From the NCBI GenBank assembly GCA_018220955.1, contig JAAOXV010000034.1, forward strand, positions 1 to 29,334: DNA of 29,334 nucleotides, in the 5' to 3' direction. The notes beneath the pieces are model-generated. The model was not told the origin of the DNA. It did not search any database and was given only the letters and a program-made list of their open reading frames with translations. This document shows positions 507 to 20,674 of this stretch, piece after piece. Numbering within the stretch: position 1 is the stretch's first letter; every line of letters starts with the position of its first letter. Position numbers and translations under genes: made by a program. The stretch comes from Candidatus Altiarchaeota archaeon (GTDB lineage Archaea; SpSt-1190).

Positions 507-594
507 ATATCGCTAGTATATAGATGACTATATAGTTTTCACTTTGGAAACTCAAAACTTATAAAAACCCCATTGAATCTGAAACTTAGGTGAA

Positions 595-3412: not shown

Positions 3413-4182
3413 TAGGCGATCTTACAAAAAAGAACATAATTGACTCTGTAAAGACAGGCGTCAGAATAGATGGTCGAAAAATAGATGAGTTTAGACCCAT
3501 CAAGATTGAGACCGGAGTTGTCACAAAGGCAGAAGGCTCGGCCATGGTTGAGCTTGGAAAGTCAAAAGTGATTGTAGGTATCAAGATGGGTATCGGCGAG
3601 CCGTTCTCAGATAGACCAGACCAAGGTGTGCTTATGACCAACGCAGAGTTGACAGCCATGAGCGCTAATGAGTTTGAGCCAGGACCTCCGAGTCCGGATG
3701 CAATTGAGCTAGCTAGAGTGATTGACCGTGCGATTAGAGAATCAAAGGTGATTGACCTTGAGAAGCTGTGTGTCAAAAAAGGAGAGCAGGTTTGGATGAT
3801 ATTTGTCGATATATACACTATCAACGCAGATGGGAATATATTTGACGCAGGTGTGCTTGGTGCATTTGCGGCATTAGCAACCGCTAAAATACCAGTTCTT
3901 AAGGACGGAGTTGTTGATAGAGAAGCTGCAGCTAAGAAGAGTTTGCCGTTAGACGGTAAAGTAGTTTCAACTACATTTGCCAAGCTAGGCGATAAAATCG
4001 TAGTTGACCCTATTCGAAAAGAAGAGCTCTCGATGGAAGCAAGACTCACAATCGGTGTGAAAGACGGAAACATAGTTTCGCTACAAAAAGGTGGCGAAGG
4101 CGGGTTCAATAAAAAAGAACTCGAGGAAATGTTCGAAAGGTCTTTAAAGCACTCGAAAGCACTTCTGAAAACACTGGGGTGA
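3409..4182 (+). CDS. rrp42: Exosome complex subunit Rrp42 (RNase PH-like, non-catalytic)
   Basis: IDGRKIDEFRPIKIETGVVTKAEGSAMVELGKSKVIVGIK matches Rrp42. 257 aa. It overlaps the rrp41 stop by 4 nt. Confidence 0.85.
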   Translation: MIGDLTKKNIIDSVKTGVRIDGRKIDEFRPIKIETGVVTKAEGSAMVELGKSKVIVGIKMGIGEPFSDRPDQGVLMTNAELTAMSANEFEPGPPSPDAIELARVIDRAIRESKVIDLEKLCVKKGEQVWMIFVDIYTINADGNIFDAGVLGAFAALATAKIPVLKDGVVDREAAAKKSLPLDGKVVSTTFAKLGDKIVVDPIRKEELSMEARLTIGVKDGNIVSLQKGGEGGFNKKELEEMFERSLKHSKALLKTLG

Positions 4183-4186
4183 CAAG

Positions 4187-4783
4187 ATGAACGCAAGGCA
4201 GATACTGGTCAAGAACGGCGCGCATATCGGCACGCCCAGTAAAGTCGAAGCTATGAAGAGATTTATCTTCAAGATTCGGCCGGACGGGCTGGCGATTATT
4301 AATGTACAATCAGTGGATGAAAGGCTTAGGACAGCGGCAAAGATGCTAGCTCAATATGAGCCAGAAGATATTCTGATTGTTGCAAACCGGGAGCAGGCAC
4401 ATAAGCCTGTTGAGCAGTTCTGCAAGCATACTGGATTCCAGGGGATTACAGGTCGTTTCTTTCCAGGAACTATGACCAATCCCAACCTGGATTATTTTAT
4501 TGAGCCAAAATTGTTGATGGTAATCGACCCTTGGGTTGACAAGCAGTCAGTGACTGAGGCAACCAAGCAGAGAATACCAGTAATCTCGCTTGTAAGCACT
4601 AACAACACATTTTCAGATATTGACCTGGTTGTACCTTGTAATAACAAGGGTCGAAAGTCACTTGCGGCAATATTCTATGTGCTGACTCATTATGTGTTGT
4701 ATGAGAAAAAAGGGTTGACTGAGGGACAAGAGCTAGAAGCGAAGTTTGAGACATTCTTTGACGACTCCAGAGATTCACAATGA
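4187..4783 (+). CDS. rps2: 30S ribosomal protein uS2 (S2)
   Basis: GAHIGT near the N-terminus, ITGRFFPGTMTNP and IPVISLVSTNNTFSDIDLVVPCNNKGRKSLAAIFYVL match archaeal S2 along its full length. 198 aa. Confidence 0.85.
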   Translation: MNARQILVKNGAHIGTPSKVEAMKRFIFKIRPDGLAIINVQSVDERLRTAAKMLAQYEPEDILIVANREQAHKPVEQFCKHTGFQGITGRFFPGTMTNPNLDYFIEPKLLMVIDPWVDKQSVTEATKQRIPVISLVSTNNTFSDIDLVVPCNNKGRKSLAAIFYVLTHYVLYEKKGLTEGQELEAKFETFFDDSRDSQ

Positions 4784-5544
4784 TTCGAAATCCAGCAGCA
4801 ATTGGTTTTTATCCAGCTGAGCAAGCGCAGCTAGAGCTCTTGCTTTCTGAGCTGTTTTTACAAGCCAAGAAGTCAGGACCGTTCATTCACGGAATCTCTC
4901 CGCATGCTGGCCTGATTTATTCTGGTCTTGCGGCAGCCGGACTTTACAAGTCACTCAAAAAAACAGATCGCCTTGTGATATTGGGTACAGACCATCATGG
5001 AATTGGGGATGATATTGTAGTGCATCCTTATTCTGCCTGGAAAACCCCGTTTGGACAAGTTAAGGTAGACACTGAGCTGGCGGCCGAGCTAGATACCCTG
5101 GGTCCGCAGATTTATCCTTGCCCGAGTGAACACTCAATTGAAGTTCAGCTACCTTTTTTGCAGCACATACTTGGTGACTTTAGTTTTCTACCAATCACTG
5201 TACCGTCTGTCCCTTTTCCTCGTCTGCAGGAGCTTGGTGCAAAGCTGGCCGAGCTCGATGTGCCGATTATTGCCAGCTCAGATATGAGTCATTATGTTCC
5301 TGAAGCTCGGGCTGAAAAGCTGGACAAGCTGGCGATTGAACAGATACTAGCTATCCAACCAGAACAGCTGATTGACACTGTGCTTGAGAACAACATCAGT
5401 ATGTGTGGCCTTTTCCCTGTTGCAGCTCTGTTGGCATCTTTACCAAGCTCAACCAGCTCAGAACTTATCGAGTATTATAGCTCAGCCGAGATGACCGGCG
5501 ACAGCTCAAGCGTGGTTGGCTATGCCTCTATTGGATTCAAATAA
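4780..5544 (+). CDS. MEMO1-family protein (AmmeMemoRadiSam system protein B-like, UPF0103)
   Basis: Motifs GFYP, SPHAGLIYSG, ILGTDHHG, EHSIEVQLPFLQ, SSDMSHY and MCG are characteristic of MEMO1. 254 aa. It overlaps the rps2 stop by 4 nt. Confidence 0.75.
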   Translation: MIRNPAAIGFYPAEQAQLELLLSELFLQAKKSGPFIHGISPHAGLIYSGLAAAGLYKSLKKTDRLVILGTDHHGIGDDIVVHPYSAWKTPFGQVKVDTELAAELDTLGPQIYPCPSEHSIEVQLPFLQHILGDFSFLPITVPSVPFPRLQELGAKLAELDVPIIASSDMSHYVPEARAEKLDKLAIEQILAIQPEQLIDTVLENNISMCGLFPVAALLASLPSSTSSELIEYYSSAEMTGDSSSVVGYASIGFK

Positions 5545-6345: not shown

Positions 6346-6867
6346 CTAAACAAGAAATTCTCTTAGCTTTGCTAATGGCGCTGACAAGTTTTCGTGTACT
6401 GAAAAATTGTATATTGGTTCAGAATGAGCTTGTATGTCAATTGCATAACCTCTACCAGTTGAAACCTGATAATGCATTGCATTGTCTTGGTTTTCATTAA
6501 TGGTTTCAAACAGTTCTTTTGCCCTATCAGATACTGTGTTATACCAATCCAGACAATGTTCGACATGTTCATGAGTTGTACCTATCAACACAATTGGGAT
6601 TTTGTTTGTTGTACTGATGATTTCCTGATAAAATTTTTCAGCTTCCTCAACAGTAGATGTGCTGGTACAGTCATAAAACAACAAAGCAGCCTGTAGGATT
6701 TTAGAAACATTTTTTGTGAAGTTTAGTTTCAAGTCTGTGTCGCCAAGACCATAAACAAAGCTTTCAGCTTCCCAACCAACTTGTTTTAGATATGACTTTG
6801 TCTCTGGATGTTTTGTATCCAATTTTGGATATTTGCTAAATAATCCGATTTCCAATTTCATATTCAA
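6346..6867 (-). CDS. Ras/Rab-like pseudo-GTPase: a paralog of the upstream GTPase with a degenerate P-loop
   Basis: 173 aa. The C-terminal two-thirds align with the adjacent 206-aa protein (LLFYDC..IPIVLIGTTHEH vs LVFYDL..PIMLVGIYDN; AMHYQVSTGRG vs AEHFQVSTNKD). The N-terminus (KLEIGLFSKYPK) lacks GxxxxGK[ST]. Its start overlaps the upstream stop by 4 nt. Confidence 0.5.
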   Translation of the reverse strand: MNMKLEIGLFSKYPKLDTKHPETKSYLKQVGWEAESFVYGLGDTDLKLNFTKNVSKILQAALLFYDCTSTSTVEEAEKFYQEIISTTNKIPIVLIGTTHEHVEHCLDWYNTVSDRAKELFETINENQDNAMHYQVSTGRGYAIDIQAHSEPIYNFSVHENLSAPLAKLREFLV

Positions 6868-7484
6868 ACCTCTGCAGAAATTTTGTCAAAATAAGCTGCT
6901 TCAGCACAAGCTCGGATTGGAGCATCATATGGTAAATCAGAATGAACTATCTCGCTCGGTCCGCTAAGATGTAATATTTTTTGTTGATCTTTGTTTGTTG
7001 AAACTTGGAAATGTTCTGCATATTCTCTATTTTCCTGGATTTGTTCAAACAGATTGTCGGCCAGTTCAATAACCTGTTCATTTTTCCCATTATCATAAAT
7101 ACCTACCAGCATAATCGGTTTGCGCGGGTCAATTCCGAGCTTTGTATCAATAAAATCAACATAGTCTTTAGCTATATCAATGCTTGTGACATCCATTAAA
7201 TCATAGAAAACCAAGTTAGTACTTGAACCCATGACAAATTTTGAAGATAAACACTGAAACCGTTTCTTTCCTGAAAAATCCCATATTTGAGCTAAAATTG
7301 TGGTTTTCTCTGGGTCTGGAGTTGCGATATCAAAATAATGAACATAATGTTCAACACCAATTGGTTTTTTCTCTTGGTCTATGCCAAGCGCAGTCTGAAG
7401 ATATTTGGATTTACCTATTTCAGATTTGCCTACTGAGAAAATTTTAAATAAATAATCATATCGCTTTTTCTCCGAAGAGTTCAT
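6864..7484 (-). CDS. Small Ras-superfamily (Rab/Rup-like) GTPase, divergent
   Basis: 206 aa. YDYLFKIFSVGKSEIGKS is a Rab-like N-terminus carrying a G1 P-loop (GxxxxGKS). IWDFSGKKRF corresponds to the Rab switch II motif WDTAGQERF (DxxG retained). The position of the guanine-specificity motif NKxD reads LVGIYDN, so G4 is degenerate. Confidence 0.6.
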   Translation of the reverse strand: MNSSEKKRYDYLFKIFSVGKSEIGKSKYLQTALGIDQEKKPIGVEHYVHYFDIATPDPEKTTILAQIWDFSGKKRFQCLSSKFVMGSSTNLVFYDLMDVTSIDIAKDYVDFIDTKLGIDPRKPIMLVGIYDNGKNEQVIELADNLFEQIQENREYAEHFQVSTNKDQQKILHLSGPSEIVHSDLPYDAPIRACAEAAYFDKISAEV

Positions 7485-7753: not shown

Positions 7754-8703
7754 TTTATTGTAGCCTCGATAATGACTGGCTTTTCCTCAAGCTCCTTAAA
7801 TCTCATCTGTTTGGTCAGCTCCTTGTATCGGTTTCTGATTGTAACTTCTGTTACACCGGCTACATCCGCCACTTCTCTTTGAGTTTTCTTTTCTCCTGTT
7901 AGCTGAGCAGCTATGTATAGAACTGCTGCAGCCACGCCGGTCGGGCCCCTTCCAGATGAAAGTTCAAGCTCTTTTGCCTTTTTCAAAATTTCAAGTGATT
8001 TTGTTACTGTGATGCCTGATAGGTTTAGCTGGCTTGCGAATCTAGGGATATAGTCGGCTGGATCAGTCGGCAAAATCCTGATACCAAGCTGGCGAGCAAG
8101 GAATCGGAAGGTCCTACCAATTTCGCGCTTTGGTATATTAGCAACATCCGCTATCTCATCAAGCGTCCTGGGTGTTCCGTGTTCTCTGCAGGCAGTATAA
8201 AGTGAGGCTGCCACAACTGATTCCATGCTTCTTCCCCTGACTAGTTCTTTTGCAACCGCCCGCCTATAGACAAGCGCGGCTGCCTCTTCCACCCCTGGTG
8301 GCAGGTTGAGCTGACTGGTATAGCGTTTCAGCTCAGCTAGTGCATACTTCAGATTTCTCTCTGTTGCAGTACTGATTCTCTGTTGCCATTTTTTGAGTCT
8401 TAGGAATTTAGGCCTTAGTTTTGGCGGCAGCTTGAAAATATCACTGAATCCCATACCTATTTCGGTTGAGATTCCCTTGTCATGTCTGGCTAAACTAATC
8501 GGAGCTCCAGCTCGTCTTCGCTTATTGGCATCACCACTATCAAACTCTCGCCACTCTTGACTAAAATCTATCATGTTCTCTTCTAGTACTGCTCCGCATT
8601 TTTTGCAAACCAATTCGCCTCTAGTAAAATCTTTCATAAGACTTTCAGAATTACATTTAGGACATTTCTTTGTATCACCTGAAGAATGTACGACAAGTGC
8701 CAT
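7750..8703 (-). CDS. tfb: Transcription initiation factor IIB (TFB)
   Basis: N-terminal Zn ribbon CPKC...CKKCG and two cyclin-like repeats (ALVYRRAV..., AAAVLYIAAQL). 317 aa. TATA-like elements (tttataaatgg, ttaatataaaaaac) sit in the 117-nt upstream spacer. Confidence 0.9.
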   Translation of the reverse strand: MALVVHSSGDTKKCPKCNSESLMKDFTRGELVCKKCGAVLEENMIDFSQEWREFDSGDANKRRRAGAPISLARHDKGISTEIGMGFSDIFKLPPKLRPKFLRLKKWQQRISTATERNLKYALAELKRYTSQLNLPPGVEEAAALVYRRAVAKELVRGRSMESVVAASLYTACREHGTPRTLDEIADVANIPKREIGRTFRFLARQLGIRILPTDPADYIPRFASQLNLSGITVTKSLEILKKAKELELSSGRGPTGVAAAVLYIAAQLTGEKKTQREVADVAGVTEVTIRNRYKELTKQMRFKELEEKPVIIEATIK

Positions 8704-8820
8704 TATATCACCTGCAGTATAGAAATTCTTTTAAACATTAGAATCCCCGCACAGTTACCATTTATAAAACTTTGTGTTTTTTATATTAACCCTTGTCCCG
8801 AAGGAGTTTGAACAGTTTGC

Positions 8821-9837
8821 TTAAAAGACCGTGTCGAACATCCACCGAATTGCCTGTGGAAATACTTTTACCAAGAACCTGGATTGGAAATCCATATCAC
8901 CACGTGATTCAAGAACAGGCTTTGTTCTGTTTAGAAATCTGACCATCGCCTCTGGTTTGCGCTTTATTAGCTTGTATCCAAGTCCTTGCAAGAATAGTTC
9001 TTTTGACATCTTTTGTTTCCATAAACGTTCATAGTTTTTCTCGTTCTTGTTTAGAATTGCTTTGGCAGCTGCTTCTGCGGCCGTCATCGCCATTACTACG
9101 CCTCCGCCAGTGGTTGGCTTTACCTGCCCGGCAGAATCACCAACCAACAATATCTTTTTGTCAGCCAGCTCAAAATAGGTTTTCTTTACAGGTCCAGACA
9201 TAATCACAAGACCGGAATATTGTTTGGTTGGTCTGAATCTACCAAACCTCTTGAGTACAAAATCCTTGAGTGGTCTGCAGTCTCTGGCTGCCATCCCGAC
9301 TCTCACACCTTTGTCAATAGGAACTACCCAGCTAAAGAATTCAGAGGCCCAAGCTCCATACCAGAGCTCGACAAAGTTTTGATCAAGTCGCTCTTTTAGA
9401 TCAAATTGCAGAGCCGGCAAGAAACCCAGCTTCTGACCCATGTCAAATCTTGTTTTAGATGTTGACCCATCTGCTGCTATGATAGTCCCAGTCAAATCTC
9501 TCCAATTTGTTGAACAACCGACCTTAATATCTGCTCCAGCAGATGCTGCCATATCTGCGAGCTGCCTGTCAAAGCTCGGCCTATCAATAACTGTTGCAAT
9601 GCCTTTTTTTTCGAGCCGAACTTTTTCTTGTCCAGCTATAATTATAGCACCATCAATTTTGTTCAGGATTTTATCAGGCTTTACAAAGCTGTTGAGCCTG
9701 TTTGATATAAGTCCGGTACAATGATTTGGTTCGCCTATTTTTTTGGATTTTTCATATATCTGAACCTTTTCTCCAGCTTGTGCCAGCTTTAACCCAGCCC
9801 ATAATCCAGCTGGTCCAGCTCCAATAATGTTGGCCAC
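8821..9837 (-). CDS. Geranylgeranyl reductase-family FAD-dependent oxidoreductase
   Basis: N-terminal IIGAGPAGLWAG Rossmann FAD motif, CTGLIS, and the C-terminal GDSAGQVKPTTGGGV motif typical of GGR/DGGGP-lipid reductases. 338 aa. Confidence 0.75.
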   Translation of the reverse strand: MANIIGAGPAGLWAGLKLAQAGEKVQIYEKSKKIGEPNHCTGLISNRLNSFVKPDKILNKIDGAIIIAGQEKVRLEKKGIATVIDRPSFDRQLADMAASAGADIKVGCSTNWRDLTGTIIAADGSTSKTRFDMGQKLGFLPALQFDLKERLDQNFVELWYGAWASEFFSWVVPIDKGVRVGMAARDCRPLKDFVLKRFGRFRPTKQYSGLVIMSGPVKKTYFELADKKILLVGDSAGQVKPTTGGGVVMAMTAAEAAAKAILNKNEKNYERLWKQKMSKELFLQGLGYKLIKRKPEAMVRFLNRTKPVLESRGDMDFQSRFLVKVFPQAIRWMFDTVF

Positions 9838-9887
9838 AATTGACTCGCCTGATTGGATTAATAAAGATTTAAAGGACTGACCCAGCT

Positions 9888-10802
9888 TTGGAAGTGATGT
9901 TGATTATCATAGAAGGGCTTGGTTCACCGGCTGTGTTTGATTTAGCTCGGATGCCGGTTTTTGAAAGACTGGGTGAGCTTGGAGTGAGTGGTGTGATAAA
10001 AACAGGTTGGACTAAGCTCAATAATGGTGAGATGCTTTGGAGACTGCTTGGACTCGATGGTTTTCCAGGAATGGGTCCTGTTCTGGCATCCTCATATGGA
10101 GTCAGTCTTGGAAAGCGCTCTGCCGCACAGCTCAGATTTTGTGAAATAAAAAAAACAGATAAGGGTACAGAGTGTTTGTTCTTGACCGATAGAGAAGCTG
10201 AGGGTAAATATATTCTTGCTGGGAGAACACTCGAGATAATTGGTGAGCATGAGCCAATTCTAGTGTATGATGGTTCAACACGGATAAGTGAGAATTGGTG
10301 TGAACCAGGCGAGCTAATAAACAAGCCAGAGCCGCTTTCAAAGGATGCAAAGACCAGCACAAAATTACTCAGGACTTTCTCAAACAAGCTTTTTGAGCAA
10401 AAAGGACTTTGGCCGGTCTTTCGCGGATTCGGAAAGTTCTCAAAATTCCCGCGGCTTGATGGCACACTAGTGTCAAAATCAAGAACTGCTTTGGGAGTTG
10501 CAAAGCTGGTTAACCTTAAAACCACTAGCTCACTTGAATCAACCAGCGACGACAGTCTGCGAATAGTTTATTATTCAAAAAAATGGAAGAATCAAGCTGA
10601 GAAAAAGAAATTCTTGGAAAATCTTGACAAATCGCTTCTGCATCTTATTAGTCAGTCTGAAAAAGAAACCATAGCAATAACAGGAACTCAGGAAGAATCA
10701 GGTTTTCCAGTTCCATACGCAATTGCAGGACCGAACTCGTTTAAAGGAAAAATAAATCTTGAGCTCCACGAGTTCATGCAGGCATTAAACGAGCATAGAT
10801 AA
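9888..10802 (+). CDS. Metalloenzyme-superfamily protein related to archaeal cofactor-independent phosphoglycerate mutase (aPGM), short and with substituted metal ligands
   Basis: LIIIEGLGSPAV resembles the aPGM N-terminus LIIIDGLGDRP. The C-terminal ITGTQEESGFPVPYAIAGP resembles LTGDHSTP..DPIPIVIWG, but the DH/DHS metal-binding residues are replaced by TQ/EES. 304 aa versus about 410 for aPGM. The overlapping minus ORF (9869-10525) is low-complexity. Confidence 0.35.
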   Translation: MEVMLIIIEGLGSPAVFDLARMPVFERLGELGVSGVIKTGWTKLNNGEMLWRLLGLDGFPGMGPVLASSYGVSLGKRSAAQLRFCEIKKTDKGTECLFLTDREAEGKYILAGRTLEIIGEHEPILVYDGSTRISENWCEPGELINKPEPLSKDAKTSTKLLRTFSNKLFEQKGLWPVFRGFGKFSKFPRLDGTLVSKSRTALGVAKLVNLKTTSSLESTSDDSLRIVYYSKKWKNQAEKKKFLENLDKSLLHLISQSEKETIAITGTQEESGFPVPYAIAGPNSFKGKINLELHEFMQALNEHR

Positions 10803-11540
10803 GCAGGCCAAAAGGAACATGAACAAGACGGCCTTGAGTATTCTTTTTGCATACTTGAATCTATCGATTATAGAGAAGTAGAGTGAAAAACAAATCATTG
10901 CAAATGAGAACGAGAAATAAAATGCGTATGAAACATCACCATAGATAAGTGGCAGAAAACCCCAGATTGACATTAGAACCAGCATCAACTGTGCAACCAT
11001 TTTTGTTCGTTTCTCACCTATAATCTGTCTGAGCGTGTTTTGCTCAACTGAATATGGATGCGCTAGCTCGCTAAGTAAGAAGTATGATAAAATCAAGAGT
11101 AGCACAAACCAGAAAATTGCAAAGCTGATTGAATGGGTTGAGACGACCAATACAAAGGATGCAATAGCTATGGCTGAGATAAACTGACCGAGAAACTTCC
11201 AGCTCCATCTGATATGAGTGGCATACAGCACAAGTACAGCCTCTATCAAAAAGATTGGATACAGTATGTCATAGTTAATTGATAGTGCAAGCGAGACCAA
11301 TAGCAATCCAAAGCTAAGCTTGATTGTTGTGTTTTTGTCAAGCTTGCCAGCAGGGATGGATTTGTCCTGTCTGTATAGCTTGTCAGACTCAGCTCCAAAA
11401 TACTCGTTTAATCCACTTGCCCCCATTAGTCCAAAAAAGAACGGCAAAAATACTAGCGGTTCGCCAGCTGACAAGATGGCAGGAACAACTGATAAAAGAG
11501 AAATCATCAATGATTCCAAAACTCTGAATGTCTTGATCAT
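10785..11540 (-). CDS. UbiA-superfamily prenyltransferase-like polytopic membrane protein (divergent)
   Basis: 251 aa with 7-8 TM helices. LNEYFGAESDKLYRQDKSIPAGKL resembles the DGGGP-synthase/UbiA motif NDYFDxxxDxxxRxxRPxPxG, but its acidic residues are partly replaced. Confidence 0.4.
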   Translation of the reverse strand: MIKTFRVLESLMISLLSVVPAILSAGEPLVFLPFFFGLMGASGLNEYFGAESDKLYRQDKSIPAGKLDKNTTIKLSFGLLLVSLALSINYDILYPIFLIEAVLVLYATHIRWSWKFLGQFISAIAIASFVLVVSTHSISFAIFWFVLLLILSYFLLSELAHPYSVEQNTLRQIIGEKRTKMVAQLMLVLMSIWGFLPLIYGDVSYAFYFSFSFAMICFSLYFSIIDRFKYAKRILKAVLFMFLLACLSMLV

Positions 11541-11710
11541 TTACCCTTACCTTTTCGGGCGCGCTTCTTTGGTCTCAAACCTTTGTATCCACATTTGCGA
11601 CACTTGATTTTGCGTGCTTTAATTTTTGAAGGTTCTGCCCTGATGCTGGCATTGCATTTCATGCAAATATATACTCTATCAAACAGTCTTTGTATTGCTG
11701 GGTCGCTCAC
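11537..11710 (-). CDS. rpl40e: 50S ribosomal protein eL40 (L40e)
   Basis: Hand-translated. ...SDPAIQRLFDRVYICMKCNASIRAEPSKIKARKIKCRKCGYKGLRPKKRARKGKGK* matches the L40e pattern (ICMKCNARN...CRKCGY..LRPK). There is no in-frame ATG upstream of the conserved N-terminus. The likely start is GTG (11710) or TTG (11731). The stop overlaps the next gene's start (ATGA). Confidence 0.7.
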   Translation of the reverse strand: MSDPAIQRLFDRVYICMKCNASIRAEPSKIKARKIKCRKCGYKGLRPKKRARKGKGK

Positions 11711-11732
11711 AAAAGATTTTTTCTTCTTTAAT

Positions 11733-12206
11733 TTATAACCTTTCCTTCTGGATGTCTATAAGCTCAACTTCGGTTTTTGCCCGGCTATATGCGACCAATC
11801 TTTCTTTGTTTAGTTCAAGAAAGTGAGGCCCCCACTTGAATTTGCTCATTACTAGCTCAGCTTGCTTTGGTTCACCAAGTATCCATAGCCCTGCTGCAAG
11901 TGCTTCTGCAGTACTTAGCTTCATTGGTTTTCCATAATTGATTGGATTGGCGGCTACGAGAAAAGGCAGCTTTCTGGCTGGACTATGTTTGAGAAAAGAC
12001 CTGAGCAGGTTCCAGCTTACATCAAGTGCAGTCAGCTCAGTCAAGCTATCGGCTGGGCTCAGAAACTTTTCAGCGAATGGGTTGAGCAATACACCAACCG
12101 GCTTGTCTATCAGCTCAACCAGTCCGAACTTGGCAAGTCTCATAGCAGTGCACTTTTTTGGGTCATCTTCACCATGTCTTATCACAAACAGTTCAACCAT
12201 GCTCAA
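11733..12206 (-). CDS. tsr3: 16S rRNA aminocarboxypropyltransferase Tsr3 (DUF367)
   Basis: HGEDDPKKCTAMRLAK matches the Tsr3 N-terminal signature. 157 aa, the archaeal size. Confidence 0.75.
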   Translation of the reverse strand: MSMVELFVIRHGEDDPKKCTAMRLAKFGLVELIDKPVGVLLNPFAEKFLSPADSLTELTALDVSWNLLRSFLKHSPARKLPFLVAANPINYGKPMKLSTAEALAAGLWILGEPKQAELVMSKFKWGPHFLELNKERLVAYSRAKTEVELIDIQKERL

Positions 12207-13444
12207 ACCTTTATGCTTCCTGTCAGATCAAGCATCGCCCTACCAGGATATTCAATCGCCAACTTCTTTACTGGTTTTCTTATGGTGTCTGGCATAGCTG
12301 AATGAATCATTTTTATTAGTTTTGGATTCAGCAACGGCTTGAGTTGACTGGCCTCCATTGACTGAAACAGCTTTTCACTTTTGACTGTTTTGAATTTGCT
12401 GACCCGTCCATCTTGAACAGATGCCTTATACACCTTTTTGAGCTTCTCTTTTTCATACAATGCCATATAAACGCCATCATCCAACAGCCAGACAAACGCC
12501 CGTTCACTGGTCATTTCAAAAATTATTTTTGGCATGGTTTTTATCTTGTATTTTACAGTCGAAATAGTTTCTTTGTCTATCATCGAGCTGATGATTTCTT
12601 TTTTCAAAATCTTGTGATAAAACTCAACTTTCTTTTCTAGCTTTACCACGAGTTCTGCATTTGGCTTCTTTTCTCCATGTTCTGCATCCTTGTGAGCTTT
12701 GATTACTTCTGCACATATTGTCGGTATCTCAGCTGGAATAGCCCCTTCATCAGCAAACCTCTTTAGTATAATCGGTATTTCTGGTGGTGAGGCCGGTTCT
12801 TTTCCGACCGACATAATATACGCGTTACCCATCCAGGTAACTACTCGATACATTCGTTCAACAATCCATTCTAGATATTGCTCTATTTTTTTCATATAAA
12901 CATCCGAACCCTCAACAGCTTTCATCATGGCCTCCTTGGTTGGTCTGACCTCACCAGATTCAAGCAGCCGCTTGAGTGGTTTAATTATGCCTGCATCATA
13001 TATCGGTTTCATATGCCTAAAGAAATTGTAAATAATGGTATCTCCTTCTTTCAAAAAATCCCAGATTTCAGTGAGAGTGTGAACCTGAACTGTTAGCTTT
13101 TTATCTACTTTCTTTGCCATATCATTTAACATAGCGATTATTTTTTCTTTTAGCTCGCCTGGCACATCACGCTGGGTATCATCTATTATGACCAACATAT
13201 CAATATCAGATGTGGGCCGATAATCATCTCTTGCAAGCGAACCAATAACAGCAATCCCCTTTATCATTCCTCCCAGCTTTTGTCTGGCAATGACTGAAAA
13301 TCGCTCAGCGGCCTTTATTTTCATCCTATAAAAGGTCTTCCTTCGTTTTTTTGCCTTAGATACAAATTTAAGCTTCTCTTCGTGGTTTACTCTTGTTTCT
13401 TTGGCTGGTTTAGCTGTTTTTTTTGCCGCCATGCAAAAACCCAT
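12203..13444 (-). CDS. Pol-beta-superfamily nucleotidyltransferase fused to a HEPN-like helical domain, with a basic N-tail and a 170-aa C-terminal extension of unknown function
   Basis: GSLARDDYRPTSDIDMLVIIDD is the GS...DxD motif, followed by a third acidic region (TVQVHTL). The segment ...PLKRLLESGEVRPTKEAMMKAVEGSDVY... is paralogous to the adjacent 275-aa protein. 413 aa. Confidence 0.6.
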   Translation of the reverse strand: MGFCMAAKKTAKPAKETRVNHEEKLKFVSKAKKRRKTFYRMKIKAAERFSVIARQKLGGMIKGIAVIGSLARDDYRPTSDIDMLVIIDDTQRDVPGELKEKIIAMLNDMAKKVDKKLTVQVHTLTEIWDFLKEGDTIIYNFFRHMKPIYDAGIIKPLKRLLESGEVRPTKEAMMKAVEGSDVYMKKIEQYLEWIVERMYRVVTWMGNAYIMSVGKEPASPPEIPIILKRFADEGAIPAEIPTICAEVIKAHKDAEHGEKKPNAELVVKLEKKVEFYHKILKKEIISSMIDKETISTVKYKIKTMPKIIFEMTSERAFVWLLDDGVYMALYEKEKLKKVYKASVQDGRVSKFKTVKSEKLFQSMEASQLKPLLNPKLIKMIHSAMPDTIRKPVKKLAIEYPGRAMLDLTGSIKV

Positions 13445-14271
13445 TATTCTTGGTTATTAAAGCTATGGGATTTTATTAGCTGGTCTATTTTGGCCACAAA
13501 CGCAGATACCTGCTTGTATAACCTCTCTAGCTCAGCTGGTTCGACTTTTTTCACGTCTCCACGCTCTATTTGTTTCATTAGCTCAAAAACAGCCTCATAT
13601 ACTTTTACATCACTGTCCTCCAGCTTTCCTTGTTGAACAAAACCTTGTCTGAGTAGCTCAGGAACATCCCACGGGCTTCCTGGTACTTGTCCGTGTGCCA
13701 TCAATCCGGCGTGCGCTGCCTCTACTGCAGACCAATAGAGTGCGCTGGCTGCGCCAAGAAAAGCACTGGTATAACCATTTAGATTATAGAACGCCCTACT
13801 CATCGCAGCAGCAGCTGCTTCGTGTGTGGGCCTTATTTTTCCCTGTAAGAGCAACCGCTTGAGTGGTGCAAAAAAACCAAGGTCGGATATCGCAACTCCG
13901 TCACGTAGCATTTGTATGACAAGCGGGTCGCCCCGTCTAGCCGAGTCCCAGAACTGACTGATGGTTACAATATTGATATGAAAACTCTGGTGTTTTTCTT
14001 GGATTGCCTGTATTTCAGACTGGAACGCCATATACAGTGCTTTGTCGAGCGGCGCGAATGAATCATCAACTATCACTGCTATATCAGTATCACTCTCATT
14101 TTTTTCAGTTCTTCTTGAAAATGAGCCAAATACCACAATTGCCTTGATGAAGCTGCCGAACTTTTTTACTATTCTGGCACTGAAACCATATAGTTCCTCT
14201 ATCGACTCCATCCGAATGTCTTTCTTTTTTGCGTCCTTAATCAGCTTTTCCTTTTTTATTATTTTTTCCAT
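13444..14271 (-). CDS. Pol-beta-superfamily nucleotidyltransferase fused to a HEPN-like domain (KNTase-like architecture)
   Basis: GSFSRRTEKNESDTDIAVIVDD is the NTase motif. A C-terminal helical domain (...ALYWSAVEAAHAGLMAHGQVPGSPWDVPELL...) resembles HEPN substrate-binding domains. 275 aa. Its stop overlaps the start of the downstream paralog. Confidence 0.6.
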   Translation of the reverse strand: MEKIIKKEKLIKDAKKKDIRMESIEELYGFSARIVKKFGSFIKAIVVFGSFSRRTEKNESDTDIAVIVDDSFAPLDKALYMAFQSEIQAIQEKHQSFHINIVTISQFWDSARRGDPLVIQMLRDGVAISDLGFFAPLKRLLLQGKIRPTHEAAAAAMSRAFYNLNGYTSAFLGAASALYWSAVEAAHAGLMAHGQVPGSPWDVPELLRQGFVQQGKLEDSDVKVYEAVFELMKQIERGDVKKVEPAELERLYKQVSAFVAKIDQLIKSHSFNNQE

Positions 14272-14275
14272 TTAA

Positions 14276-16114
14276 TCACCCTTGTCGTTTTGATGAATAT
14301 AGAGTTGGTTGGCTTGATGCCCAAATGAGCGGAGTTCTGTCTGGTCCGATTGTATGTCCACCGCCGTGTAGGGCCGGAGCAAGATAACCGCCAAATGCTG
14401 CGCGCATAGGTGCACCAAGAGTTTCATACTGAAACGAATACATTCCTCTACTAAAAAAGCCCTGTGAATATCCCCGAGCCACGCCTTCCCAATAGCTGGG
14501 GGCATGACTATAACCCGCCTTTTCTACCATGCTAGGCATAACCTGACCTGGTGCAGTTGACATAGCCATCAGTGCTTCGAGTGGCACGCCATCATTCCAC
14601 ATATTATTTACAGTTATTTCGATATCTTCGATATCTGCTCCTTCGATATTCACCACACCCATGTCCATCAAGTTCTTGAATAACCCCGGGTCCATTCTTG
14701 ATACTTCATCCATCCAGTCTCCCCAGGCTTCGTGTTGGTGGCCGAATCCAGGTCCGCCGACCAAATGAACATGACCTGGCTTGACTCCGTGCTTTTTGAG
14801 CTCTTTCAAAAACTCGCTTGGTTTGATATTGCTTGATGCAGAGTGACCAACATCAAAGGTCATGGTAATCAGGTCTGGCGATACTCCATTAGCCTTTGCG
14901 ATTGACCTAATTTTCTTGACCAACTTTGCCATCTCAGCTGGTTTGTAGAACATCGGATAGCCTTGCATATACCCTTTTTCTGGTGCGGCTGGAAATAGGT
15001 TTTCGAGCGCAATCTTGACTTTTCCTTGCTTGAGCATTTTTTGGGTTTCCTTGTCTTTAAGCAGCTTGCTGAATGTGTCTTCAACATTCTTCATTATCAT
15101 AGATTTCGAATCACTAAACGGTCCGAATCGCATTCCTTCTCGGGTCATTATTTTTTCCCATGCCTTTTCTCTGAGCTCCAGCTCTTGTCTTTGATTTTTT
15201 GCCACCTCGCCGTGCCGCCCAATCGGGCTTAGTGATGCAAGATTGACTTTTGACCATTGGCCTTCAATAAAATTCTGGACTTCTGGATTAGCAAAATGTT
15301 TTTTGAACTCATTTAGCATTTTATTGTCTAGCTTTCCCTCGGGTGCAAGTCTCATAAACTGCGTCATCATCCGGCTTCGGATTTCCTCATCAATATTATT
15401 GACTTTTTTGATATCTGATAAGACCTTTCCAAGGTCGTTGCTATGTTGTTTGAAAAGATCAACCACCCGTTCCTGTGCTACATTGGTCTTGAAATTATCA
15501 TGAATCGGTGCAGCCGCAGCAGCAAACTTTTCTGCAAATGTCAGCGGAAGCGTTTGAATAAAATTACCCCACTCGCGTTTTATCTGTTCTTTCATTAATT
15601 CATCCTTTACATTATATTCCTGAAACAACTTATTCAGCTCTTGTTTGTTTGCAGCCAGCATGAATGGACTTTGAACCGGCAGCTTTGTGCCGACAAATGG
15701 CTCAATAAAGTAGTAACCCATTGAACCAATTGGATGGACTGTAAGTGTCTTTGCACCAACTCGCTTGGAATACTCTATACTTTGCTTTAGTATCTCTGCT
15801 GCCTTGGCTCGCTCAATTCCAGTTAAACCAGCCGGGTCTGCCTTCATTGGAGCATGAACAGTAATGTCGCCTGCAAATGTGTTTACAATATCTTTTACTT
15901 TTGCGACCTGCCTGTCTGTAACAGACCTGGGCCCGGTCTCAGCTCGAATAGCTAATCCGCCTCCGGCTCCCTCTTTTGCAAACGTGCCACCTAAGTCAAT
16001 CTCTGCGCTCACAACCCCGCGCTCAAACGTGTTCATGAGTTGTGCAAAGAAATCGGCTTTTTCGTTGGGACCAGGCACACTTGCACCGATTGCTGGCTTT
16101 TTTTTGTCTGCCAC
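14276..16114 (-). CDS. Xylose-isomerase-like / endonuclease-IV-superfamily TIM-barrel protein with a large internal insertion
   Basis: 612 aa. N-terminal AIGASVPGP...LGGTFAK...ITVHAP and TLTVHP, later FDVGHS, and C-terminal GHVHLVGGPGFGHQHE resemble the metal-binding strands of the Endo IV / sugar-phosphate isomerase TIM barrel. About 280 residues of helical sequence are inserted between them. Confidence 0.35.
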   Translation of the reverse strand: MADKKKPAIGASVPGPNEKADFFAQLMNTFERGVVSAEIDLGGTFAKEGAGGGLAIRAETGPRSVTDRQVAKVKDIVNTFAGDITVHAPMKADPAGLTGIERAKAAEILKQSIEYSKRVGAKTLTVHPIGSMGYYFIEPFVGTKLPVQSPFMLAANKQELNKLFQEYNVKDELMKEQIKREWGNFIQTLPLTFAEKFAAAAAPIHDNFKTNVAQERVVDLFKQHSNDLGKVLSDIKKVNNIDEEIRSRMMTQFMRLAPEGKLDNKMLNEFKKHFANPEVQNFIEGQWSKVNLASLSPIGRHGEVAKNQRQELELREKAWEKIMTREGMRFGPFSDSKSMIMKNVEDTFSKLLKDKETQKMLKQGKVKIALENLFPAAPEKGYMQGYPMFYKPAEMAKLVKKIRSIAKANGVSPDLITMTFDVGHSASSNIKPSEFLKELKKHGVKPGHVHLVGGPGFGHQHEAWGDWMDEVSRMDPGLFKNLMDMGVVNIEGADIEDIEITVNNMWNDGVPLEALMAMSTAPGQVMPSMVEKAGYSHAPSYWEGVARGYSQGFFSRGMYSFQYETLGAPMRAAFGGYLAPALHGGGHTIGPDRTPLIWASSQPTLYSSKRQG

Positions 16115-16162
16115 AATAGTATCTGTTCGCCATACTTATAAATCTCATAGATTAGACCTGGC

Positions 16163-17143
16163 GTGGAATCATTTATCATTGAGATGGTGTTTGCCGCTAT
16201 TGTGACTCTTTTGGCAACTCCTAGAATAGCTAGATACCTGAAAGCCAGTGGAATAATGGCCAGGGACCAACACAAACGAGACAAGCCACTTTTACCGACA
16301 AGCGGTGGGATTCCAGTCTTCTTTGGTTTTTACCTTGCGGTTTCGCTCTATATTTTTCTAAGAGTCTATTATTTTGGTGATATGTCTGATCTTTTGCCGA
16401 TAATGGCAGTTCTATTGTCAACAGCAATAATCACTGTGATTGGATTTCTCGACGATATTAGGGTTAACCTGGGTTCAAATCAGGAGCGGATTGGATTAAA
16501 GCAATGGCAAAAGCCGCTTCTGACATTGGTTGCGGCTATACCTCTTATGGCACTCAAGGTCGGTAACCCTAGTATGAGCTTACCTTTGATAGGTCTGGTG
16601 AATGTAGGTATTTTATACCCGTTGGTGTTTGTGCCTGTTGGTGTGATGGGAGCAGCCAATATGGTCAACTTGCTTGCTGGCCTGAATGGACTTGAGACTG
16701 GCATGGCTATTGTTTATCTTGGTTCATTGGCTTATTTTGCGTTTCTCAACAGTACTTTGGCAGCAAAAGTGATTGCCTTTGCTGGACTCGGAGCTGCTCT
16801 TGGCTTTTATTATTGGAACAAGTTTCCAGCAAAAGTCTTGCCAGGTGACAGTCTGACATACTTTTTCGGAGCTTTGCTGGCGAACCTGGCGATAATTGGA
16901 AACATGGAAAAAGTAGCACTTGTCATTTCAATCCCTTTCTTTTTCGAGTTTGCATTAAAGCTTAGAGGCAAGCTGAAACAGCCGACAGTTGGCACAGTAA
17001 ACCGTGATAAGATACTAAAACTCAATGAAGGTATCTACTCACTACCGCATTTCTGGATGAAAGGTAAACATACTGAAAAACAGGTAGTTTTCAGGATTTG
17101 TGTGATTATTGCAGTATTTTCTGTTTTGGCCTGGTTTGTTTAG
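16163..17143 (+). CDS. aglH: UDP-GlcNAc:dolichyl-phosphate GlcNAc-1-phosphotransferase (MraY/WecA/GPT family, AglH-like)
   Basis: 326-aa polytopic membrane protein. It carries the GFLDD motif and NMVNLLAGLNGLETG (the conserved NxxNxxDGxDGL-type motif) of the polyprenyl-phosphate HexNAc-1-P transferase family. Confidence 0.7.
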   Translation: MESFIIEMVFAAIVTLLATPRIARYLKASGIMARDQHKRDKPLLPTSGGIPVFFGFYLAVSLYIFLRVYYFGDMSDLLPIMAVLLSTAIITVIGFLDDIRVNLGSNQERIGLKQWQKPLLTLVAAIPLMALKVGNPSMSLPLIGLVNVGILYPLVFVPVGVMGAANMVNLLAGLNGLETGMAIVYLGSLAYFAFLNSTLAAKVIAFAGLGAALGFYYWNKFPAKVLPGDSLTYFFGALLANLAIIGNMEKVALVISIPFFFEFALKLRGKLKQPTVGTVNRDKILKLNEGIYSLPHFWMKGKHTEKQVVFRICVIIAVFSVLAWFV

Positions 17144-18946: not shown

Positions 18947-20674
18947 TCAATCACCTGTCTTTATACCCAATTCATCCAGTAGCTCTTGATCTGCCTTGGC
19001 TGGCCCATCCTCCATTAGAGCTCTGCCGACCTTGTTTTTTGGAAAAGCAATCACATCACGGATACTGTCTTTACCAAGCATTACCTGCAATAGTCGGTCA
19101 AAACCAAACGCGATTCCGCCATGCGGCGGGACGCCGTAATCAAATGCTTTTAGCAACATCCCAAACTTTTCTTTGGCAGTCTTTCTGTCTATCTTTAGCA
19201 ACTCAAATATCCGTTCCTGAAGTTTTTTATCAGTTATTCTCATGCTTCCTCCACCGACCTCTGTACCATTTATTACTAGGTCAAATGCCTGTGACCGAAT
19301 GTCAAGTAGCTCTTGTTCACTGAGATTTTCAAACAGGTCAGACAACTTTTCTGGTTTCGGTAAAGTGAATGGATGATGTCCGCTTTGGAGTCTTTGCTTT
19401 TCCTGACTCCATTTAAACAATGGAAAGTCTGTCACCCACAAGACATCAAGACCTTTTCGCAAATCTAGCTTTTCTGCAGCAGCTAATCTCATTGCACCGA
19501 GTGCTTCGCAGACCCTTGCCCAATCTCCAGCTAATATCAACAAAGTTCCTTTCCCAAGTTTTTTGAGCTTGGTTTTTATTGGCTCTAGCTGCTCAGCCAC
19601 CCCTCCTTTTAGTTCCTTTTGTATCCACGTCCAGGCAACACCGGGAAAACCATAGTCTTTTGCGATTTTCTCCATTGCTTTTGTTTCCTTTCTGGTTAAT
19701 TCTTCTGGAATAAGTATGGCTTTTGCTATTCCATCAGCTCTGATTTGCTTTTCAATTATCTTGAATCCACTTTCTCTAAGCTCGTCAGTAAGCTCAATCA
19801 GCTCAATCCCGAATCTGGTGTCTGGCTTATCTGATCCATATAGGTCTATTGCATGTTCCCAACTCATTTGCTTGAATGGCCGTTTCAACTTTATTCCGAG
19901 CAGCTGTGCATACAATAATGAAATTAGGCCTTCTGATAGTTCTTGTATATCTGACTCTTCTGAAAAGCTGGTTTCAATGTCAATCTGTGTAAATTCGTAT
20001 TGTCTGTCTGCTCTTAGGTCCTCGTCTCTAAAGCACCGGACAATCTGAAAATATTTGTCAAACCCAGCTACCATTAGGAGCTGCTTATAGATTTGTGGAC
20101 TCTGCGGAAGTGCCCAGAATTTACCTTTAAAGCTCCGGCTTGGCACAAGGAAATCTCTGGCCCCTTCTGGGGTTGGTCTACTCATAAACGGAGTTTCAAT
20201 TTCCACAAAATCTTTTAGTAACATATATTGCCTAATTAGTGTCTCTGCCCCGAATCTGAACTCCATTGCTCTCTGCATTTCTGGTCGGCGAAGGTCCAGA
20301 AATCGGTACTCTAATCGCTTTTCTTCAGTTGTTTTGATGTCTGGGTTGAATATTTCAAGTGGAAGCGGTTTTGACTTGGACAAAACAATAAATTTGTCAG
20401 CTATAACTTCTATCTCGCCTGTGTTAATGGCAGAATTTGGCTGTTTTCTTTTAACAACTGCCCCTTCGACTAGCACGACCGATTCTCTGGGTAGTTCACT
20501 ATAAACTGCCTTAAATTCTTCGCCAAGCACGGCCTGTGTTATTCCATGGCGGTCACGCAGGTCTATGAACGCCTTTTTTCCAAAAGACCTAAGAGAATGA
20601 ACCCAGCCTGCCAGCTTGACTCGTTTCTTGATATCAGTTTTCCTGAGCTCGCCACAGTTGTGAGACCTTAACAC
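18947..20674 (-). CDS. aspS: Aspartyl-tRNA synthetase, bacterial type (class IIb with GAD insertion domain)
   Basis: 575 aa. It aligns with bacterial AspRS along its full length (CGELR...GWV, LDLRRPEMQ, FRDEDLRADRQ.EFTQID, DFPLF...HHPFTLP, GGGSMRI, PPHGGIAFGFDRL..IRDVIAFPKN). Archaeal-type AspRS is about 430 aa and lacks the GAD insert. Confidence 0.9.
   Translation of the reverse strand: MLRSHNCGELRKTDIKKRVKLAGWVHSLRSFGKKAFIDLRDRHGITQAVLGEEFKAVYSELPRESVVLVEGAVVKRKQPNSAINTGEIEVIADKFIVLSKSKPLPLEIFNPDIKTTEEKRLEYRFLDLRRPEMQRAMEFRFGAETLIRQYMLLKDFVEIETPFMSRPTPEGARDFLVPSRSFKGKFWALPQSPQIYKQLLMVAGFDKYFQIVRCFRDEDLRADRQYEFTQIDIETSFSEESDIQELSEGLISLLYAQLLGIKLKRPFKQMSWEHAIDLYGSDKPDTRFGIELIELTDELRESGFKIIEKQIRADGIAKAILIPEELTRKETKAMEKIAKDYGFPGVAWTWIQKELKGGVAEQLEPIKTKLKKLGKGTLLILAGDWARVCEALGAMRLAAAEKLDLRKGLDVLWVTDFPLFKWSQEKQRLQSGHHPFTLPKPEKLSDLFENLSEQELLDIRSQAFDLVINGTEVGGGSMRITDKKLQERIFELLKIDRKTAKEKFGMLLKAFDYGVPPHGGIAFGFDRLLQVMLGKDSIRDVIAFPKNKVGRALMEDGPAKADQELLDELGIKTGD

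Follow-up and report, generated by a model that had tools for sequence, protein, structure and literature searches.

Nucleotidyltransferases (NTases) of the MNT clade are joined to HEPN domains in several described systems. HEPN domains fused to an MNT domain typically lack RNase residues and serve in substrate binding or regulation, examples being KNTase and the NTases that modify glutamine synthetase (Anantharaman et al. 2013, PMC3710099); HepT of the type VII toxin-antitoxin (TA) systems and the fused protein FhepTA, which occurs on prophages, require an R-phi-xxxH motif with an adjacent Tyr (PMC13000451); and the DPANN-specific, unusually conserved cluster cls.004259 (NEQ050), which 36 of 67 DPANN genomes carry, is described in the passages concerning it as 'MNT fused to HEPN ... 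typically in house-keeping context' (Makarova et al. 2019, PMC6393860). Here two such fused proteins, termed NTa and NTb, are analyzed together with the TIM-barrel protein encoded just before them, termed TIM612. All three are encoded on the minus strand of a 29,334-base stretch of DNA (the window), which is the entire contig of a metagenome-assembled genome (MAG) of a DPANN archaeon labelled Candidatus Altiarchaeota; close relatives of the window are labelled Altiarchaeota, Undinarchaeota or Nanobdellati, and the NCBI kingdom for all of them is Nanobdellati (DPANN).

A first-pass annotation of the window had treated the three genes as part of a six-gene cluster that continues into the genes of Tsr3, ribosomal protein L40e and a UbiA-like membrane protein, and had suggested from this placement a role in RNA or ribosome modification. 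The comparisons presented here point to a different functional unit--that is, a vertically inherited housekeeping module consisting of TIM612, NTa and NTb, rather than the six-gene string. The best explanation overall, with a probability of roughly one half, is that within this module the two NTases form a heteromer, for which the TIM enzyme is the favored acceptor.

Insofar as it can be compared by description, cls.004259 resembles NTa and NTb in its fused MNT-HEPN architecture, its non-patchy conservation within DPANN and its housekeeping context (PMC6393860); the NTa family, being broadly distributed in DPANN, fits this description, and one NTa-like cluster has a member named Candidatus Nanoarchaeia. 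The passages of that survey describing the cluster make no mention of two paralogs, of the NTb C-terminal domain, of the loss of the RNase motif or of linkage to a split AP_endonuc_2 TIM barrel. Such TIM linkage of the MNT-HEPN family appears to be undescribed, and literature searches on MJ1311, on NEQ050 and on operons combining endonuclease IV (Endo IV), NTase and HEPN genes found no functional study. KNTase (ANT(4')-I) and the ANT/Lnu enzymes likewise consist of an N-terminal Pol-beta/MNT NTase followed by a HEPN-derived substrate-binding domain in a single chain (253 aa for KNTase versus 275 aa for NTa); however, only the GS...DxD region aligns by sequence with NTa and NTb, which are archaeal, have no antibiotic-resistance context and form two paralogs linked to a TIM-barrel gene. 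HepT/MntA and FhepTA share the order MNT then HEPN, FhepTA (276 aa) being similar to NTa in length (PMC13000451), and type VII TA systems encode the NTase beside, or fused to, the protein that it modifies. NTa and NTb differ from these in lacking R-phi-xxxH with the adjacent Tyr, in being non-mobile, and in showing conserved synteny rather than a patchy distribution; a type VII HepT/MntA-like TA system is the probable evolutionary origin of the module.

GlnE and GlnD also combine an NTase with a HEPN-derived helical domain and, in GlnE, two homologous NTase units act on a single metabolic enzyme. NTb gives weak NCBIfam matches to GlnD, and the NTb-like Pacearchaeota protein P0090 (599 aa; locus L036, 10001-11800) resembles GlnE in carrying two NTase-like units within one chain, the first of which is degenerate. 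(The P0090 gene lies directly 5' of the L35Ae and L10e/L16 genes.) Set against this likeness, the scores are far under the cut-offs, the context includes neither PII nor glutamine synthetase, NTa and NTb are separate genes, and their target is hypothesized. TIM612, for its part, carries HAP, HP, ENx, DxxH, HxH, xH and xE motifs in the same order as do Endo IV and MJ1311--the latter being listed as a predicted Endo IV homolog (PMC2770678) and bearing the PDB title 'D-tagatose 3-epimerase-like protein'. It differs from both by a ~230-aa helical insertion after beta3, by ~120 extra C-terminal residues, and by an unconserved Asp229-equivalent.

Conservation of the TIM612-NTa-NTb gene order

Loci related to the window were gathered by exact-protein look-ups, by an NTb-seeded genome scan and by a TIM-seeded metagenome scan, and all of the window proteins were mapped onto them. 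The TIM gene occurs in 26 loci, 22 of which extend at least 1 kb downstream; in all 22 of these the TIM, NTa and NTb genes follow one another in this order on the same strand, and in all 22 NTa comes directly after TIM. The 22 informative loci correspond to about 14 distinct genomes and to five deep clades of Altiarchaeota/Undinarchaeota-like archaea; clades as deep as those of loci L016/L017, L018, L020 and L029/L030 keep the triad at sequence identities down to 25-44%, and each of the related genomes sampled has one copy of NTa and one of NTb, in conserved synteny. Within the close clade the genes are tightly packed: in L001, for example, successive gene ends and starts fall at 7999/8001 and 8837/8837, and in the window, where the close spacing reported by the first-pass annotation is borne out for these genes, a 4-nt gap separates the TIM TGA (ending at 14276) from the NTa ATG (at 14271), and base 13444, as read from the junction sequence, is common to the NTa TAA and the NTb ATG.

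A similar association is seen further afield, NTa relatives being present in MAGs named Altiarchaeota, Undinarchaeota, Pacearchaeota and Nanoarchaeia. In the Pacearchaeota locus L036, an acidic 177-aa protein, an AP_endonuc_2 protein with the same split architecture (termed TIM590) and an NTa ortholog (NT293; 30% identity to NTa, E 3e-40) are encoded by adjacent genes, and the NTb-like 599-aa protein is encoded 5.5 kb from TIM590 and NT293. The direct match between the TIM family and TIM590 is modest (hhalign E 3e-4, probability 40%); homology is concluded from the Pfam match, the shared split and the adjacency to an NTa ortholog. In the Nanoarchaeia-type locus L041, genes for a 476-aa protein and then an acidic 183-aa protein precede those of TIM638 (Pfam E 1e-15) and NT265, in this order. 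Linkage to the TIM gene, which the first-pass annotation had treated as a mere flank, is thus conserved at every depth; synteny weakens the ribosome-related reading of Tsr3 and L40e, and it is likely, though short of certain, that these genes form a three-gene enzyme module that is neither a TA system nor linked to the ribosome.

Several other genes recur around the module. In every deep clade, opposite-strand genes encoding proteins of 205-328 aa (L016 8710-9696, L017 8767-9696, L018 3881-4516 and L020 3315-3932, all on the minus strand) lie between NTa and NTb and are conserved inside clades; phmmer and hhalign detect no homology between clades among them, and they could represent either a fourth component that evolves fast or insertions that occurred repeatedly. 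Directly 5' of TIM lies a gene for an acidic or E/K-rich protein of 177-242 aa, both in deep Altiarchaeota-like clades (L016 4998-5651, L017 4569-5213 and L018 382-1110) and in L036 (20175-20708, minus strand) and L041 (5465-6016); the protein has only a chance-level Pfam match in Nanoarchaeia-type loci and is missing in the window clade, where a GT4 gene stands in its place. A family of 476-546 aa proteins, without a Pfam or PDB match, is encoded 5' of the acidic/TIM/NTa cluster in three Nanoarchaeia-type lineages (L041 4030-5460; L036 20754-21800, minus strand; L040 6454-8094; tblastn E 2e-16 and 6e-8) and is another candidate component of the module. In L040, a 623-aa protein (8094-9965, plus strand) encoded directly 5' of the NTa/NTb-like NT405 contains, in order, HLP, FH, a K/E-rich helical stretch, IETN, MDLEH, LHVN, AHAP and WEMG; this is the ligand order of the split TIM barrel, but no Pfam or profile match is significant (hhalign E 0.08), and the resemblance is suggestive. 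Finally, genes with Nre_N/Nre_C domains lie no more than a few kb from the module or from an NTb-like gene in two unrelated lineages (L002 3368-4528 and L035 15574-15830, both on the minus strand). Nre is an archaeal protein associated with DNA repair, and this co-location may be coincidental.

The paired nucleotidyltransferases and the metallo-barrel

NTa and NTb are paralogs, as first proposed (27% identity over 213 aa, E 1e-24), and the NTase motif recognized in the first-pass annotation is present in both, as GSFSRRTEKNESDTDIAVIVDD in NTa and as GSLARDDYRPTSDIDMLVIIDD in NTb. Both score above the cut-offs for Pfam Polbeta and NTP_transf_2 and show the hallmarks of the MNT clade of Pol-beta proteins--that is, G[SG] followed by [DE]x[DE] within an alpha-beta-alpha-beta-beta fold--and in both the MNT domain is followed by the four-helix up-down bundle of the HEPN fold, so that the fused NTase-HEPN architecture is supported. 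The Rx4-6H motif of active HEPN RNases, which the earlier annotation had suggested looking for, is not conserved in the aligned families, at most 4 of 26 NTa and 1 of 23 NTb sequences sharing it at any one alignment position. The architecture, in which an MNT-type NTase precedes a HEPN fold that lacks the RNase motif, is that of KNTase and GlnE. Membership in the ANT(4')/KNTase family itself is not indicated (NCBIfam ANT_4p_I: 24.1 bits for NTa and 21.3 bits for NTb versus a cut-off of 350), and family scans of the NTases also returned weak MTPAP-like palm matches.

Residues G49, S50, D61, D63 and D70 of NTa are invariant across 26 homologs. In NTb the GS...DxD residues are likewise invariant except in one clade (P0076-P0080, corresponding to loci L019-L021), where FES...SPIEV replaces GS...SDID; NTa at this NTb-dead locus retains GS...SDVD. 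In place of the RNase motif, the HEPN-like part of NTb has the invariant residues K252-x-x-E255-H256-G257, and NTa has IERGD, IEKGE or ITHRE.

An AlphaFold model of NTb based on 23 homologs (mean predicted local distance difference test score (pLDDT) 85) places in succession a basic helix (residues 16-60), the NTase domain, the helical domain, a 40-residue helix and a beta-rich domain (residues 304-413) with strands at 306-354 and 394-398 and helices at 356-382 (pLDDT 80-95). GenBank starts the protein at the ATG at 13432, giving 409 aa. Of the two additions attributed to NTb by the earlier annotation, the basic N-terminus stands, the first 40 residues carrying a net charge of +11; the C-terminal extension of ~170 aa does not, since ~150 aa lie past the region alignable with NTa and ~110 aa of these (residues 304-413) form a separate domain. 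No Pfam family matches this domain, and phmmer against 1.84 billion representative proteins returned 9 matches, of which the full-length ones share the same 411-457 aa architecture and the others are shorter fragments; judged by these matches, the domain is lineage-restricted. Polybasic tails, more generally, occur on at least one of the two NTases in most clades and shift among clades between NTa and NTb termini; in L020 NTa (2372-3313, plus strand), for example, a C-terminal tail of ~45 residues is nearly pure Lys/Arg, with a net charge of +28 in the last 40 residues. Whole-protein isoelectric point (pI) was considered as a sign of nucleic-acid binding and rejected, most window proteins being basic.

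TIM612 scores 34.4 bits against Pfam AP_endonuc_2 (cut-off 31.1), which, together with its TIM fold, places it in the AP_endonuc_2/xylose isomerase-like superfamily (PF01261). The TIM family profile matches MJ1311 (3wqo) with E 3.6e-14 in two stretches ~260 profile positions apart, the alignment being interrupted between profile positions 136 and 396, and it matches the N-terminal part of Endo IV with E 3e-5; TIM612 is thus a metallo-barrel of the xylose isomerase/Endo IV/MJ1311 type. In the AlphaFold model the insertion forms helices at residues 150-362 (pLDDT 80-95), and the barrel is split after beta3 in the Pacearchaeota and Nanoarchaeia TIM homologs as well. Residues H87 (HAP), H127 (HP), E371 (ENL), D421 and H424 (FDxxH), H450, H461 and E491 remain invariant down to 25-30% identity. 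The metal ligands of E. coli Endo IV are H69, H109, E145, D179, H182, H216, D229, H231 and E261; by motif alignment via MJ1311 and Endo IV, H, E or D is conserved in the TIM family at 8 of these 9 positions, the equivalent of D229 being variable. The last ~60 residues of the tail contain the invariant residues Y559-S560-F561, W598, Q602-P603 and Y606-S607-x-K609, and residues 478-612 are modelled at pLDDT <50. In the L020 clade the TIM protein (436-2343, plus strand) ends in ...YQPY, without the terminal LYSSK, and has YAF instead of YSF.

Candidate acceptors and alternative readings

NTa and NTb would act as a hetero-oligomer: active sites of the KNTase type span a dimer, catalytic residues have been lost from NTb in one clade and never from NTa, and the paralogs are ancient and always co-occur. 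The degenerate HEPN domains would hold an acceptor while a nucleoside monophosphate passes from the triphosphate to a hydroxyl group. The favored mechanism, which is put forward tentatively and by analogy, has the TIM enzyme itself as acceptor: a Tyr or Ser within the conserved tail at its C-terminus would be nucleotidylylated by the NTase pair, and this modification would switch the phosphoesterase or isomerase activity of the enzyme, making the module a domesticated MntA-HepT descendant analogous to GlnE acting on glutamine synthetase. The tail is a plausible target because it includes YSF and YS.K and is invariant, yet is not modelled with confidence; because the clade with a dead NTb has a tail that lacks LYSSK and carries YAF; and because characterized MNT-clade enzymes with HEPN partners mostly modify proteins, with the NTase encoded beside its target. 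A DPANN-wide version, in which a TA-derived heteromer of MNT and (dead) HEPN either nucleotidylylates the TIM tail or shares a phosphoester substrate with the TIM enzyme, is a more speculative extension.

Several observations weigh against this mechanism or against the module reading on which it builds. The correlation between tail and NTb is confined to a single lineage, and the tail sequence is unlike between lineages (LYSSK in the Altiarchaeota type versus G[AV]PME in the Nanoarchaeia type). Regulators of the GlnE type are not usually translationally coupled to their targets. A protein target leaves the polybasic tails of NTa and NTb unexplained, and these tails are themselves not universal, being absent from L041 NT265. 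In deep clades the clade-specific opposite-strand gene splits NTa from NTb, so the triad is not always one transcript. On the TIM side, hhalign of the family against the E. coli Nfo sequence is not significant (E 0.023, probability 2%), even though ENx and DxxH align as expected, and the TIM612 model is poor past residue 450, including beta6-beta8, which leaves the mapping of Endo IV ligands as a motif alignment only. Assignment of a substrate to TIM612, NTa and NTb is accordingly putative; the conclusion at the level of the module is much firmer than any acceptor option, and nucleic-acid ends or a sugar or cofactor substrate are nearly as likely as the TIM tail.

Under the first of these alternatives, which is possible but doubtful and which includes an RNA-directed role, the Endo IV-like TIM enzyme would be an apurinic/apyrimidinic-site nuclease or 3'-phosphodiesterase, and a tail-anchored NTase heteromer would extend a 3'-OH or adenylylate an end. 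It is consistent with the fact that, besides MJ1311, Endo IV structures are the sole significant PDB sequence matches, with the ligand order and its fit to the Endo IV positions, with the polybasic tails and MTPAP-like matches noted above, and with the DPANN housekeeping context reported for the family in the survey passages cited (PMC6393860). NTb-like genes abut ribosomal-protein genes in two Pacearchaeota MAGs (L036 and L035), in the unclassified assembly L040 and in the window clade, and a nucleic-acid role for NTa and NTb is possible. On the other hand, TIM612 scores 13.4 bits with the NCBIfam deoxyribonuclease IV model, whose cut-off is 333, the active-site face may be covered by the large insertion that follows beta3, and the basic tails must be seen against a proteome that is basic overall and against NTa orthologs that lack them.

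The second alternative, which likewise appears unlikely on balance, is a small-molecule pathway in which the TIM enzyme is a sugar(-phosphate) isomerase/epimerase or cofactor phosphodiesterase and the NTases O- or P-nucleotidylylate the same sugar, lipid-linked phosphate or cofactor, the product of which might feed adjacent glycosyltransferases. There are parallels in ANT(4') acting on aminoglycoside sugars, in Tam41 making cytidine diphosphate-diacylglycerol and in CbiR with a guanylyltransferase in cobamide remodelling, and TIM612 has a weak CbiR match; the NTases are KNTase-like in architecture, and the TIM protein is nearly equally close in fold to sugar epimerases, its top fold matches being D-tagatose/psicose epimerases along with MJ1311. 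Glycosyltransferase genes are, moreover, close by: in 15 of 15 close-clade loci with upstream sequence a GT4 gene lies divergently 5' of TIM and shares with it a 48-bp promoter region, the gene after NTb in L002, L011 and L014 encodes a GT2 protein, and GT2, glycogen synthase and GDE genes occur near the module in L017. But the GT4 gene is absent from deep clades, no glycosyltransferase neighbor is conserved there or in Nanoarchaeia, no transporter or further pathway gene is conserved, and ANT matches fall far under the family cut-offs (24 versus 350). The extra His ligands H87, H127, H424 and H461 are not known from the E-D-H-E sugar epimerases, which also counts against a small-molecule substrate.

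It is improbable that the NTase pair works with Tsr3 and L40e in rRNA or ribosome modification as a single six-gene operon, which is where the first-pass annotation had pointed. Tight spacing does continue through to the UbiA-like gene, the distance from NTb to the downstream L40e gene is 40-500 nt in every close-clade locus, and, as just described, ribosomal-protein genes occur near the NTb-like genes of other DPANN. However, Tsr3 comes directly after NTb only in the window; in three other genomes it is ~1.8 kb away behind GT2 and orotidine 5'-monophosphate (OMP) decarboxylase genes, and it is absent from the remaining loci. L40e is linked to the module only in the close clade, and in the window it has a TATA-like box of its own (TTATAAAT, ~21-28 nt upstream); both genes are missing from the vicinity of the module in the deep clades (L016-L018, L020, L029, L030) and in L041, so that the linkage to tsr3 and rpl40e looked for in other archaeal lineages does not extend to these. 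The base rate is also high: about 14 of the ~30 window genes are related to translation or RNA (the exosome operon, SBDS, S2, three tRNAs, RNase Z, an aspartyl-tRNA synthetase (AspRS), a class Ib aminoacyl-tRNA synthetase and a GatE-like protein), and because the window is so dense in such genes, neighbors of this kind are expected by chance and are little informative.

Least probable is a selfish or defensive MNT-HEPN TA system composed of two fused type VII HepT/MntA-like or FhepTA-like units: the MNT and HEPN folds, weak NCBIfam matches to MntA (31.7 bits, cut-off 60) and HalB and weak PADLOC PDC-S09 matches, all limited to the NTase domain, and the designation of the DPANN cluster as 'most probably' a TA module in passages of Makarova et al. 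2019 (PMC6393860) speak for it, but R-phi-xxxH with its adjacent Tyr is absent and Rx4-6H occurs at one position in at most 4 of 26 sequences, the genes keep a single copy and their synteny throughout the deep clades and are linked to an enzyme gene rather than to mobile-element genes, tblastn finds no match to NTa among 72,556 plasmids and 50,697 phage records, and its family profile finds no relatives in IMG/VR, so that in motif, location and distribution the pair falls outside the type VII systems and the earlier opinion that it is not a selfish TA pair holds.

Neighboring genes and biological meaning

All six minus-strand open reading frames listed in the first-pass annotation are present at the positions given there (Table 1). 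Two of its junctions beyond the module fare differently: the ATGA at 11537-11540, where the L40e stop overlaps the start of the UbiA-like gene, is genuine, whereas the overlap at 12203-12206 reads TTGA (implying a TTG start) and not ATGA. The Tsr3 start is more likely the ATG at 12200, leaving a 2-nt gap to NTb; 22 nt separate the Tsr3 stop from the L40e GTG.

Table 1. Coordinates in the window of the module genes, their neighbors and the protein regions discussed in the text
Feature	Coordinates	Strand	Remarks
TIM612	14276..16114	-	GTG start; gene 1 of the conserved module
TIM612 helical insertion, ~230 aa (residues ~130-362)	15029..15727	-	between beta3 (TVHP) and beta4 (ENLFP)
TIM612 conserved Gly/Tyr/Pro/Ser-rich C-terminal tail (residues ~520-612)	14279..14557	-	from alignment; not confidently modelled
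NTa, 275 aa, MNT-type NTase and degenerate HEPN	13444..14271	-	gene 2 of the module
NTb, 413 aa, paralog of NTa	12203..13444	-	gene 3 of the module; alternative start 13432
NTb basic helix, residues 16-60 (KAKKRRxxFxRxKxKAAERF)	13265..13399	-	AlphaFold helix and conservation; precedes NTase domain
NTb C-terminal beta-rich domain, residues 304-413	12206..12535	-	motifs KIKTMPKI, WLLDDG, EYPGRAMLDL
Tsr3	11733..12206	-	neighbor outside the conserved module; probable start ATG 12200
Probable L40e, 57 aa, C4 zinc ribbon	11537..11710	-	GTG start; neighbor outside the module
UbiA/DGGGP-synthase-like membrane protein, 251 aa	10785..11540	-	neighbor outside the module
GT4 (Glycos_transf_4, AglH/WecA-like)	16163..17143	+	Pfam E 2.8e-32; divergent from TIM
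TATA-like element	16136..16142	TTTATAA on -, TTATAAA on +	in the 48-bp gap between GT4 and TIM (16115-16162)

The identity of the neighbors is secure to differing degrees. Tsr3 matches Ribo_biogen_C (PF04034, E 4.4e-38), PF04068 (E 2.5e-7) and NCBIfam PRK02287 (180.7 bits, cut-off 152) and belongs to that family. The L40e protein remains below the cut-off of NCBIfam PRK04136 (38.5 bits versus 54), but has CxxC...CxxC and a pI of 10.7, and is 60-78% identical to its counterparts in relatives. The best NCBIfam score of the UbiA-like protein is 39.9 bits (E 3e-10) against a cut-off of 353, it has no Pfam match, and its first Asp-rich motif, read as NEYFGAESD, looks degenerate; its gene is found downstream in 3 related genomes, at 24-32% identity. 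Weak EboC/EboE-like matches of the TIM and UbiA-like proteins were set aside as superfamily noise, the UbiA-like gene being unlinked in deep clades.

The single, near-palindromic TATA-like element between GT4 and TIM612 lies 20-21 nt from both the GT4 GTG (16163, plus strand) and the TIM GTG (16114, minus strand), and judged by this spacing it is a putative shared bidirectional archaeal promoter that would yield two leaderless mRNAs. By pattern match only, the window, L001 and L002 each have a TATA-like box ~22-32 nt 5' of the GTG of TIM.

Elsewhere in the window, an open reading frame on the plus strand (9888-10802, 304 aa) converges with the UbiA-like gene, with an 18-nt end overlap; it matches no family and has ~32% identity to counterparts in L002, L011 and L014, and an antisense open reading frame at 9869-10525 (218 aa) is probably spurious. 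An archaeal exosome superoperon (595-5544, plus strand) encodes proteasome alpha, SBDS, Rrp4, Rrp41, Rrp42, ribosomal protein S2 and a Memo-like protein, followed by tRNA-Arg and tRNA-Leu genes. Two tandem, overlapping genes for Ras/Roc-like small GTPases (6346-6867 and 6864-7484, minus strand; Pfam Ras/Roc E 3e-10 for the second) lie beside genes for tRNA-Leu and TFB. The AspRS (18947-20674, minus strand) contains a GAD insertion domain (PF02938, E 1.5e-6), a domain typical of bacterial-type AspRS, and may have been acquired horizontally.

Proteins that serve as a signature across the DPANN lineage are very few, and the relevant passages of Makarova et al. 2019 (PMC6393860) place the fused MNT-HEPN protein among the priority targets for its housekeeping-like conservation despite a TA-like look. 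What is added here is that the family has lost the RNase motif, that it comprises two ancient paralogs in Altiarchaeota/Undinarchaeota-like lineages, and that it has a constant partner in a split metallo-TIM barrel. An isolated 'grey' protein thereby becomes a defined two- or three-component system open to co-expression and assay, and a tempting but unsupported guilt-by-association with ribosome biogenesis is corrected. The module is a clean illustration of how a TA-type fold can be domesticated for core metabolism or maintenance. If nucleotidylylation of the TIM tail is true, it would give a function to a 'dark matter' family that is a signature of DPANN and would constitute a new archaeal case of regulatory protein AMPylation.

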